NCBI GenBank assembly: GCA_047517145.1
Contig: JAKZTI010000009.1
Coordinates: forward strand, 818 to 64,817
Direction of reading: 5' to 3'
Length of the DNA stretch: 64,000 bases
Source: Gammaproteobacteria bacterium
GTDB lineage: Bacteria > Pseudomonadota > Gammaproteobacteria > Eutrophobiales > Eutrophobiaceae
The notes under the pieces were generated by a model, which saw only the letters and a program-made list of their open reading frames with translations, was not told the DNA's origin and made no database searches. Position numbers and translations under genes: made by a program. Position 1 is the first letter of the stretch. Each line of letters opens with the position of its first letter. Shown here in pieces: positions 41,328-41,783 of the stretch.

Positions 41328-41656
41328 CTCTGTGTATGAGATGAGTACAGCGTTCTCAAAATGGCTTAATTATTAACTTTGTATTAAACCAGTCATTTTT
41401 TGACCGATTTAAATATTACCATTAATATCAATTAGTTACATGAGCTATTGCGGTTCACAGCCATTATTTTGATAACTCAATCGACAATCAACCGGCATCG
41501 GCACCATCGTTGTGCATAAACTGATTCTAAAAACCCCTGGATTTGATCACTGCCTGAACTTTTGAACATCATTTCAGTCCTAATTACAAGTGAGTTTTCC
41601 TGCTCTTGCTCCCAAGAGCGGGTGTAGAACCCCGGTCTCCCCAGCCGGGTAATCTT

Positions 41657-41708
41657 GGCCCCGGTATGCCCTCCCTCCCCTTGATGCGCCGGGGCCTCTT
41701 TTATTTGG
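41657..41708 (+). terminator. rho-independent terminator (8-bp GC stem GGCCCCGG/CCGGGGCC, C-rich 24-nt loop, then TCTTTTATTT)
   Basis: Perfect inverted repeat followed by a T-run on the plus strand. Two further perfect hairpins precede it (41602-41619 and 41631-41649). Confidence 0.6.
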
Positions 41709-41783
41709 CTAAACAGATGATACTTTCGGCAAGATTATCCCGAAACATTACCCAAAGTGGTGTTACAGGGTAGTTAAATGAAT

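Follow-up and report, generated by a model that had tools for sequence, protein, structure and literature searches.

A hairpin element convergent with engB

We analyzed a 64,000-nucleotide (nt) stretch of DNA, here called the window, from contig JAKZTI010000009.1 of a gammaproteobacterial assembly (GCA_047517145.1) and focused on a hairpin element that we predict to be the gene of a small RNA (sRNA). The element is located between an M48 peptidase open reading frame (ORF; 39726-41192, plus strand) and the engB/yihA GTPase gene (41784-42380, minus strand), past which a cytochrome c gene and resB are found. The flanking genes converge on a gap of ~590 bp, which is AT-rich (26-43% G+C) and in which the hairpins form an island of 67% G+C. 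An earlier note on this DNA had described three consecutive hairpins, the last one with a 24-nt C-rich loop and a TCTTTTATTT tail, in a convergent gap ~400 bp away from the nearest upstream plus-strand gene. All of these features are present in the sequence, and the M48 stop codon at 41192 lies 407 bp before hairpin 1. The extent of 41597-41712 given there is right for the hairpins, but the functional unit is slightly larger, with a predicted promoter from 41556 and an RNA of ~41590-41705. The unit is composed of the following features.

41556-41561, plus strand: -35 element GAACTT (TGAACTTTT) of the predicted promoter, sigma-E/AlgU-type, near-invariant in the close-homolog alignment and matching the consensus
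41578-41582, plus strand: -10 element TCCTA of the predicted promoter, 16 nt past the -35 element, a spacing kept in divergent lineages
41590-41705, plus strand: predicted small RNA of ~116 nt, delimited with covariance model R1; the 5' end (~41589-41591) is placed from the promoter and the 3' end lies within the U-tail
41599-41622, plus strand: hairpin 1, full 10-bp stem CCUGCUCUUG/CAAGAGCGGG with loop CUCC (41609-41612), from sequence and folding
41602-41619, plus strand: inner part of hairpin 1 as read from the sequence, GCTCTTG (41602-41608), loop CTCC (41609-41612), and CAAGAGC (41613-41619)
41631-41649, plus strand: hairpin 2, CCCGG(U) (41631-41636), loop CUCCCCA (41637-41643), and (G)CCGGG (41644-41649), from sequence and consensus fold
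41657-41696, plus strand: hairpin 3, the predicted intrinsic terminator, GGCCCCGG (41657-41664), 24-nt loop (41665-41688), and CCGGGGCC (41689-41696)
41697-41706, plus strand: U-rich tail directly after hairpin 3, TCTTTTATTT as DNA and UCUUUUAUUU as RNA

Hairpin 3 contains an additional inner 3-bp helix and the apical loop CCUCCCUCCCCUUGAU (41670-41685). Its 8-bp GGCCCCGG/CCGGGGCC stem followed by UCUUUUAUUU has the makeup of an intrinsic terminator, which is kept in 22 of the 23 homologous sequences described below. The 3' end of the sRNA is 79 bp away from the convergent engB stop codon. When the plus strand was folded, a free energy of -49.3 kcal/mol was obtained (z = -3.9), and none of 200 shuffled sequences was as stable. 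Sequence GGCCCCGG was found nowhere else in the window, and a search of the window with R1 detected a single copy (41590-41705, 138.6 bits). These two results ruled out repetitive extragenic palindromes, miniature inverted-repeat transposable elements, and other repeat families.

Homologous loci were collected by several routes. When reference genomes were scanned with the EngB protein, nine loci were obtained in metagenome-assembled genomes of uncultured Gammaproteobacteria with 78-96% EngB identity, and at all nine of them the element is downstream of and convergent with engB. Metagenomes were scanned with a pattern of upstream sequence only, namely the TTGTGCATAAA box and both promoter elements, which yielded 13 true further homologs. 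Since the RNA body was not part of the pattern, these homologs provide an unbiased view of it. Six further hits (L014, L015, L017, L018, L029, and L030) were unrelated AT-rich false positives and were discarded. A distant set was composed of contigs of EngB relatives with 58-70% identity, retrieved by protein search. Covariance model R1, which was built from 14 distinct sequences, matched distant loci with 71 bits (L033), 53.6 bits (L034), 42 bits (L037), 36 bits (L043), 28-33 bits (L042), 28 bits (L036, Aquisalimonas sp.), and 25 bits (L041). In all, sRNA homologs are present at 22 loci besides the window, giving 23 sequences.

These 23 sequences were aligned by fitting them to the model, a procedure that favors the structure. 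In the resulting alignment, 96.1% of the cells are standard pairs, and changes on both sides are seen in 18 of the 24 pairs. None of 500 shuffles reached the observed values, and slid partners paired at 30-49%. Analysis of the close set with MAFFT/RNAalifold returned the same three helices. Thus, the hairpins, whose conservation in related genomes the earlier note had proposed as a check, are kept with compensatory changes at the 22 other loci.

Compensatory changes affect all seven modeled pairs of hairpin 1. In close homologs, its outer stem is kept and its inner stem is rewritten around a loop that is CCUCCC-like throughout: the inner stem is CUCUUG/CAAGAG in the window, CUCGA/UCGAG in L001, CUCAA/UUGAG in L005 and L013, CCC/GGG in L007 and L009, and ACUCUUUU/AAAAGAGU in L004. 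Hairpin 2 is paired in 100% of the cells, with compensatory changes in five of six pairs. Locus L034 shows compensatory stems in both hairpin 2 (CCCCAGU/GCUGGGG) and hairpin 3 (GGCUCCGG/CCGGAGC). A T-run follows the terminator in every homolog but L008. While the stems vary across the 23 sequences, the C-rich loops persist. Loop 1 is CUCCC or CCUCCC in most homologs, loop 2 is CUCCCCA and identical in 17 of the 23 sequences, and loop 3 is CCCUCCCUCCCC with the variants CCUACCUCCCC, UCUCCUCCCC, and CUUUCCCCCC.

Upstream of the hairpins, at a distance of ~45 nt from hairpin 1, the close-homolog alignment contains two near-invariant blocks, TGAACTT(TT) at 41555-41561 and (G)TCCTAA at 41578-41583. 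The sigma-E -35 consensus is GGAACTT, followed by conserved Ts (PMC1540707), and the AlgU promoter consensus is GAACTT-N16/17-TCtgA (PMC10651043). The motif GAACTT-N15-17-TCNNA has one match in the window. Among diverse uncultured Gammaproteobacteria and Aquisalimonas, GAACTT-N16-TC..A precedes 21 of the 23 sRNA copies, and L041 has a -35 element with one mismatch, GAACCT. The -10 element is TCCTA, TCATA, TCCCA, TCTAA, TCTAT, or TCTCA in divergent lineages, always with the 16-nt spacing. Distant lineages have predicted promoters with differing spacer sequences: TGAACTT-N16-TCTAA in L033, TGAACTT-N16-TCATA in L034, CGAACTT-N16-TCTAT in L037, and GGAACTT-N16-TCTCA in L036. Their spacers are unrelated, and only the two promoter elements are kept. 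A sigma-70 scan at the locus gave weak, nonconserved matches only. A sigma-54 or sigma-70 promoter using the invariant TTGTGCATAAA box, which is itself a perfect DnaA box, was ruled out by the spacing and by partner elements that are not conserved.

The gene upstream of the sRNA differs between lineages. The clade of the window and L043 have the M48 peptidase gene at this place, L036 and L037 have polA, L034 has a DUF3530 gene, and L041 has argS. In L036 (Aquisalimonas sp., GCA_048323695.1; 3641-3792, plus strand), the promoter GGAACTT-N16-TCTCA and the RNA are inverted in comparison to all other loci, so that the unit is on the same strand as engB, directly downstream of it, and convergent with polA. 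The promoter travels with the RNA despite the differing upstream genes and the inversion, and therefore the RNA is not dependent on the M48 transcript. This bears out the proposal of the earlier note that an independent plus-strand sRNA ends here in an intrinsic terminator: a sigma-E-type promoter is conserved, the upstream gene varies (polA, argS, DUF3530, engB), and the U-tail is on the plus strand. From these comparisons, we infer an sRNA gene driven by a predicted sigma-E (RpoE/AlgU)-type promoter and, likewise, its transcription as such, its dependence on sigma-E, its 5' end, its targets, and the direction of regulation. The sequences themselves show the structure with its conservation and covariation, the conserved promoter motif, the strand, the single copy, and the synteny.

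The C-rich loops are complementary to Shine-Dalgarno-type G-rich sequences and resemble an anti-Shine-Dalgarno sequence. Because they are kept and the loops of the Xanthomonas sRNA sX13 act on G-rich ribosome-binding sites (RBSs), we propose a sigma-E-induced block of translation. Under envelope stress, a sigma-E (RpoE/AlgU)-type extracytoplasmic function (ECF) sigma factor would transcribe the sRNA, and transcription would end at hairpin 3, the intrinsic terminator. The loops CUCC(C), CUCCCCA, and CCCUCCCUCCCC would mimic the anti-Shine-Dalgarno end of 16S rRNA and pair with G-rich ribosome-binding regions (GGAG, GGGAG, GGGGAG) of target mRNAs, so that translation initiation would be blocked. 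By analogy to sX13, RBS occlusion by the C-rich loops is the most likely mechanism. Taken together, it is likely that the element is a stand-alone gene of a trans-acting, ~116-nt sRNA with a sigma-E-type promoter and with C-rich loops that block G-rich RBSs.

Several loci deviate from the common arrangement. No M48 gene is present upstream of the sRNA in L003, where the RNA (3603-3700, minus strand) is a two-hairpin variant: it has lost hairpin 2, the 5' arm of which is now part of the terminator. In L042, there are apparently two sRNA copies on opposite strands between engB and the next gene. The plus-strand copy (3230-3371) is the one matched by R1 with 28-33 bits and has no sigma-E-like motif; the minus-strand copy (~3629-3796) has a GAACTT-N16-TCATA promoter as well as CCUCCC and CCCCA loops, and it scores only 9 bits with R1. 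In L011 (Paraglaciecola sp. 20A4; ~3560-3680, minus strand), a perfect GAACTT-N16-TCAGA is located downstream of and convergent with engB. There, the motif is followed by an unrelated RNA-like unit of ~55 nt with a U-rich stretch and the terminator hairpin CCUUGUCG-UUCC-GACAAGG-U9. This suggests that L011 may encode a sigma-E-type sRNA at the same site but with a different body.

Relation to known sRNA families

The element was compared with families of Pseudomonas, Burkholderia, and Xanthomonas using Rfam consensus alignments and the literature; the best 120 EngB matches were all from nearer relatives. At gathering thresholds, Rfam detected nothing at the element in the window and 11 related loci. 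The subthreshold matches were all on the plus strand, and those in the window span the whole RNA.

Anti-hemB (RF02837): 24.1 bits in the window, 31.5 bits in L033, 25.7 bits in L036, and 22.8 bits (partial) in L034; gathering score, 49.5
ar14, "cuckoo" family (RF02344): 19.9 bits; gathering score, 58.8
sX13 (RF02232): 18.1 bits; gathering score, 50
Pseudomon-1/ErsA (RF01719): 17.6 bits in the window and 22.6 bits in L033; gathering score, 50

Anti-hemB was the top Rfam match in the window, L033, L036, and L034, aligned over the whole RNA except for the partial match in L034. Weak matches (14.5-29.1 bits) were also obtained with the Betaproteobacteria toxic sRNA model (RF02278).

The ersA gene is located in the polA-engB gap (PMC8575079) and is dependent on sigma-22/AlgU (PMC8395346). 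Like the sRNA described here, ErsA is adjacent to engB, and its other neighbor, polA, is also the other neighbor in L036 and L037. It has three stem-loops (SL1 to SL3), corresponding in number to the three hairpins, and its AlgU consensus GAACTT-N16/17-TCtgA compares with the predicted promoter GAACTT-N16-TCCTA. Three features are common to the ErsA consensus and our sRNA: a 5' motif, UGCUCC; a CCGG stem topped by a C-rich loop in the second hairpin; and, in the terminator, a CCCCGG/CCGGGG stem that encloses a CCCCUCCCC loop. In contrast to ErsA, the 5' part of our sRNA is a hairpin with a C-rich loop, and in the window the neighbor is not polA but the M48 peptidase gene together with a DnaA-box cluster.

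The sRNA ncS04/anti-hemB of B. cenocepacia is encoded between hemB (BCAL0264) and engB (BCAL0265) in the arrangement "<- -> <-" (PMC5688073 supplement). It was confirmed by northern blotting, is 105 nt long, and was reported to bind Hfq (PMC5688073). Its gene is convergent with engB, in the same geometry as here, and both RNAs are made up of successive hairpins with a CUCCUCCC loop and end in an intrinsic terminator. However, ncS04 has one C-rich loop instead of three, and its hosts are high-G+C betaproteobacteria. MtvR was considered as an alias of anti-hemB and discarded, as it is a different RNA restricted to the Burkholderia cepacia complex.

In architecture, sX13 is similar: this 115-nt RNA has three stem-loops, and its CCCC/CCCCC loops repress mRNAs with G-rich RBS motifs (PMC3771888). 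It is encoded at the polA locus, and its authors noted that the same locus hosts Spot 42 and alpha-r7 (PMC3771888). Its three CCCC-loop stem-loops are matched here by CUCC(C), CUCCCCA, and CCCUCCCUCCCC, which are kept across homologs, and its loop 2, UCCCCA, is nearly identical to loop 2 of our sRNA. On the other hand, sX13 was reported only in Xanthomonadaceae, is Hfq-independent, and has no reported sigma-E promoter, and its gene is flanked by polA and a hypothetical gene, not by engB.

The gene order polA(+)-spf(+)-engB/yihA(-) of E. coli MG1655 has the identical geometry, with Spot 42 (spf, RF00021), a trans-acting sRNA of ~110 nt, at the same position. Spot 42 is repressed by cAMP-CRP and is not driven by sigma-E. 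It has no C-rich loops and no sequence or structure match to our sRNA, and the likeness is in position only. In the window and the 11 related loci, the Spot_42 model (gathering score, 80 bits) had no match; in the same run, E. coli spf scored 122.8 bits. ErsA was first described as a functional ortholog of Spot 42 (PMC8395346).

Members of the cuckoo/ar14 family are composed of two to four adjacent hairpins, all with the CCUCCUCCC anti-Shine-Dalgarno motif in their loops and with varying stems (PMC4615179). The ar14 and RF02278 families are alpha- and betaproteobacterial, are found in other genomic neighborhoods, often in multiple copies, and match far below threshold; the likeness of their loop motifs to those of our sRNA is likely due to convergence. 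The E. coli sRNAs MicA, RybB, and MicL are sigma-E-driven and repress translation of envelope-related mRNAs. This is the same regulatory logic as proposed here, but they use 5' single-stranded seeds and show no similarity in sequence, structure, or position.

Based on these comparisons, our sRNA is probably the counterpart, in an uncultured marine/sediment gammaproteobacterial lineage, of the engB-adjacent sRNAs ErsA and ncS04/anti-hemB, and of Spot 42 by position only. Because its score is below the gathering score in each family, it was not assigned to any one of them. Instead, it was filed as a new, Rfam-unannotated, engB/polA-linked sRNA, with regulation and terminator closest to ErsA and architecture closest to sX13 and anti-hemB. 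The earlier note had mentioned neither the promoter nor the anti-Shine-Dalgarno nature of the loops nor the relation to ErsA, anti-hemB, and sX13.

A DnaA-box cluster upstream of the sRNA gene

The gap also contains a noncoding block (~41236-41520, ~290-300 bp) whose conservation across 14 loci exceeds that of the flanking proteins and which harbors three of the five perfect DnaA boxes of the window. Its core is given here together with two box clusters of E. coli.

41305-41339, window: DnaA-box core TTATCCACA-ATTTC-TGTGGATAA-CTC-TGTGTATGA
E. coli MG1655, bioD-uvrB gap: box cluster TTATCCACT-ATTCC-TGTGGATAA-CCA-TGTGTATTA
E. coli MG1655, rppH/ygdT-mutH gap: box cluster TTATTCACC-TTTTC-TGTGGATAG-AGT-TGTGAAGAA

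We take the bioD-uvrB gap and the rppH/ygdT-mutH gap to be the sites of the DnaA-reactivating sequences (DARS) DARS1 and DARS2, respectively. DARS promotes the release of ADP from ADP-DnaA, and in DARS2, IHF and Fis sites are present as well, at a fixed spacing. In the order and orientation of its boxes and in their 5-bp/3-bp spacing, the core in the window agrees with both E. coli clusters. A DARS core is composed of three DnaA boxes, of which I and II are opposite with a 5-bp space and III has the same direction as II (PMC6868365); this architecture is present at 41305-41339, ~250 bp upstream of the sRNA. A DARS-like core was also found in L032, L033, L034, and L043. Judging from its architecture, the cluster is probably a DARS2-type DnaA-reactivating sequence of an uncultured gammaproteobacterial lineage. 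If so, such sequences would occur well beyond the relatives of E. coli, and the cluster would mark a conserved noncoding module. The alternative that the DnaA boxes belong to oriC was discarded, as the GC skew is negative along the whole window, never inverting, and the site lies between genes that converge on it.

Each of the two elements can occur without the other: in L032 only the cluster is present, and in L036, L037, and L041 only the sRNA. In L032 (3560-3760, minus strand), the DARS-like core and the TTGTGCATAAA box are present, but neither a sigma-E promoter nor C-rich hairpins precede engB; the sRNA was either lost or never gained there. Another perfect DnaA box, TTATGCACA on the minus strand (41511-41519; TGTGCATAA on the plus strand), is located 36 bp upstream of the -35 element of the sRNA. 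It is invariant in every lineage with the DARS-like cluster and absent in the polA-adjacent loci L036 and L037. Through this box, DnaA could act on the sRNA promoter, or the box could simply mark the edge of the DARS-like element. The other two perfect DnaA boxes of the window (18004-18012 and 18625-18633, plus strand) lie on either side of the region where priA (16133-18361) ends and a rhodanese-domain gene (18513-19160) begins.

Alternative explanations and wider context

Several observations weigh against a stand-alone, sigma-E-driven sRNA that blocks RBSs. Approximately two promoter matches of this kind are expected by chance per 64 kb, and thus the weight of the promoter comes only from its conservation. 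Moreover, other ECF sigma factors read similar AAC-containing -35 elements. The terminator of L008 is degenerate (CCAGAACC, no U-run; 3593-3706, minus strand), and the C-rich motif of loop 1 is lost in L020 (AAAUUACA) and partly lost in L005. The sRNA is dispensable, since it is missing from L032, which is fairly closely related (70% EngB identity). No Rfam gathering score was reached, and homology to ErsA, anti-hemB, or sX13 was not demonstrated by sequence alone. The U-rich, single-stranded domain II of ErsA, located between SL1 and SL2 and experimentally identified as its seed (PMC8575079), is absent here; its model positions are deleted in the alignment, where the linker is GUGUAGAAC. Finally, a target scan by loop-restricted duplex prediction with the 53 ORFs of the window gave weak leads only, the best with -16 to -17 kcal/mol in comparison to a median of -9.9 kcal/mol: an HD-domain gene, a pilQ secretin gene, a rhodanese gene, and a pyridine-nucleotide-disulfide oxidoreductase gene.

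The best loop 3 duplexes were predicted with the initiation regions of the pilQ-type secretin gene (8258-10015, minus strand) and the HD-domain phosphohydrolase gene (4977-6110, minus strand), with -16.1 and -16.8 kcal/mol, respectively. Target prediction with full-length RNAduplex was discarded as meaningless, since it ignores intramolecular structure. A G-rich site at 38560-38584 (minus strand) was also discarded as a target because it falls in the intergenic leader of the putative rpmE gene and not at a gene start.

A plus-strand sRNA could also be real without occluding RBSs, if it acted in cis on engB via convergent transcription, by antisense overlap or transcriptional interference at the engB 3' end, or if its loops sequestered a protein or G-rich RNAs. 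In beta- and gammaproteobacteria alike, it stays tightly linked to the 3' end of engB while the upstream genes differ widely, its terminator is 0-80 nt from the engB stop codon, and the engB direction has no obvious terminator, so that engB transcripts probably extend into the sRNA gene. However, the relatives with known mechanisms (sX13, ErsA, and Spot 42) base-pair in trans (PMC3771888, PMC8395346), the antisense geometry is gone in Aquisalimonas and in one L042 copy, where the sRNA is co-directional with engB, and not only the position but also the loop sequences are conserved. We therefore regard this explanation as unlikely. That the element is no gene of its own and only the structured 3' untranslated region and terminator of the M48 mRNA, or a bidirectional M48/engB terminator, is very improbable. 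Hairpin 3 with its U-tail is indeed a canonical intrinsic terminator between convergent genes, and a convincing terminator is missing after the M48 stop codon. But the distance to this stop codon is 400 bp and is occupied by a separately conserved DNA element, a promoter motif of its own is kept even where the unit is inverted or has another gene upstream, termination would not require two further hairpins with conserved loops, and toward engB the sequence after hairpin 3 is AAGAUUA rather than a U-run.

The earlier note had also raised transcription from the minus strand, where the loops would read GGAG, CUGGGGAGA, and GGGGAGGGAGGG and the RNA would be a CsrB/RsmZ-type sponge for CsrA. Four GGA motifs would then be placed in hairpin loops, a stable fold is obtained for the minus strand as well (-47 kcal/mol, z = -2.3), and E. 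coli engB has the CsrA sponge csrC on its other side. This proposal was rejected, and we see hardly any chance for it. The conserved promoter and the U-tail are both on the plus strand; the minus strand has no promoter-like conservation and no T-run after hairpin 1. In several homologs, the engB stop codon abuts the terminator or is only ~10-15 nt past it, leaving no room for a minus-strand promoter. In a 20-sequence alignment, 28 G.U pairs correspond to A.C mismatches on the minus strand, such that pairing is 96.2% on the plus and ~93% on the minus strand. Furthermore, four GGA motifs are few for the CsrB/RsmZ class, and a search of both strands with Rfam, which the same note had suggested, gave no match to the CsrB, CsrC, or RsmX/Y/Z models even at E <= 10. 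Equally slight is the chance that the hairpins act as DNA, as cruciforms or protein-binding sites for DnaA regulation within the DnaA-box cluster. The invariance of the perfect box TGTGCATAA (41511-41519), 36 bp upstream of the -35 element, in lineages with the cluster would fit such a role. Against it, L032 has the cluster without hairpins, L036, L037, and L041 have hairpins and promoter without DnaA boxes, and the pairing-preserving compensatory changes and G.U pairs point to RNA. Lastly, a 55-amino-acid ORF with a TTG start (41606-41773) stands in the program-made ORF list. A coding function can practically be dismissed: the ORF has no Pfam match, it starts within hairpin 1 and runs past the terminator into nonconserved sequence, its frame is broken by 1-, 2-, and ~20-nt indels in homologs, and conservation tracks base pairing, not codons.

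With the sRNA reading thus preferred, the family adds 23 examples with covariation and a conserved promoter, so far unannotated in Rfam, to the poorly studied uncultured Gammaproteobacteria. Both its proposed regulatory input, sigma-E envelope stress, and its proposed mechanism, anti-Shine-Dalgarno loops, can be put to the test. It is possible, albeit doubtful, that the engB-convergent sRNA represents a single ancient locus, dating back at least to the beta/gamma split, behind ErsA, anti-hemB/ncS04, and sX13, with Spot 42 as a replacement and with the family of the window, coupled to a DARS2-like element, as the linking form. If so, this family would share its sigma-E/AlgU promoter and terminator hairpin with ErsA and its three anti-Shine-Dalgarno loops with sX13 and anti-hemB. 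ErsA, ncS04/anti-hemB, and sX13, which were studied singly in pathogens, may then be branches of one engB/polA-linked family, and findings on targets and mechanisms would be transferable among them. The DnaA box 36 bp upstream of the sRNA promoter could moreover tie envelope stress or engB-linked ribosome biogenesis to the control of replication initiation.

Elsewhere in the window, a small ORF (38656-38859, plus strand), which we take to encode ribosomal protein L31 (rpmE), overlaps the listed GTG start of an SNase-domain ORF (38856-39674); this start is probably placed too far upstream. The leader of the small ORF contains the C-rich stretch CCCCCC...CTCCCCCTCCC (38543-38573).

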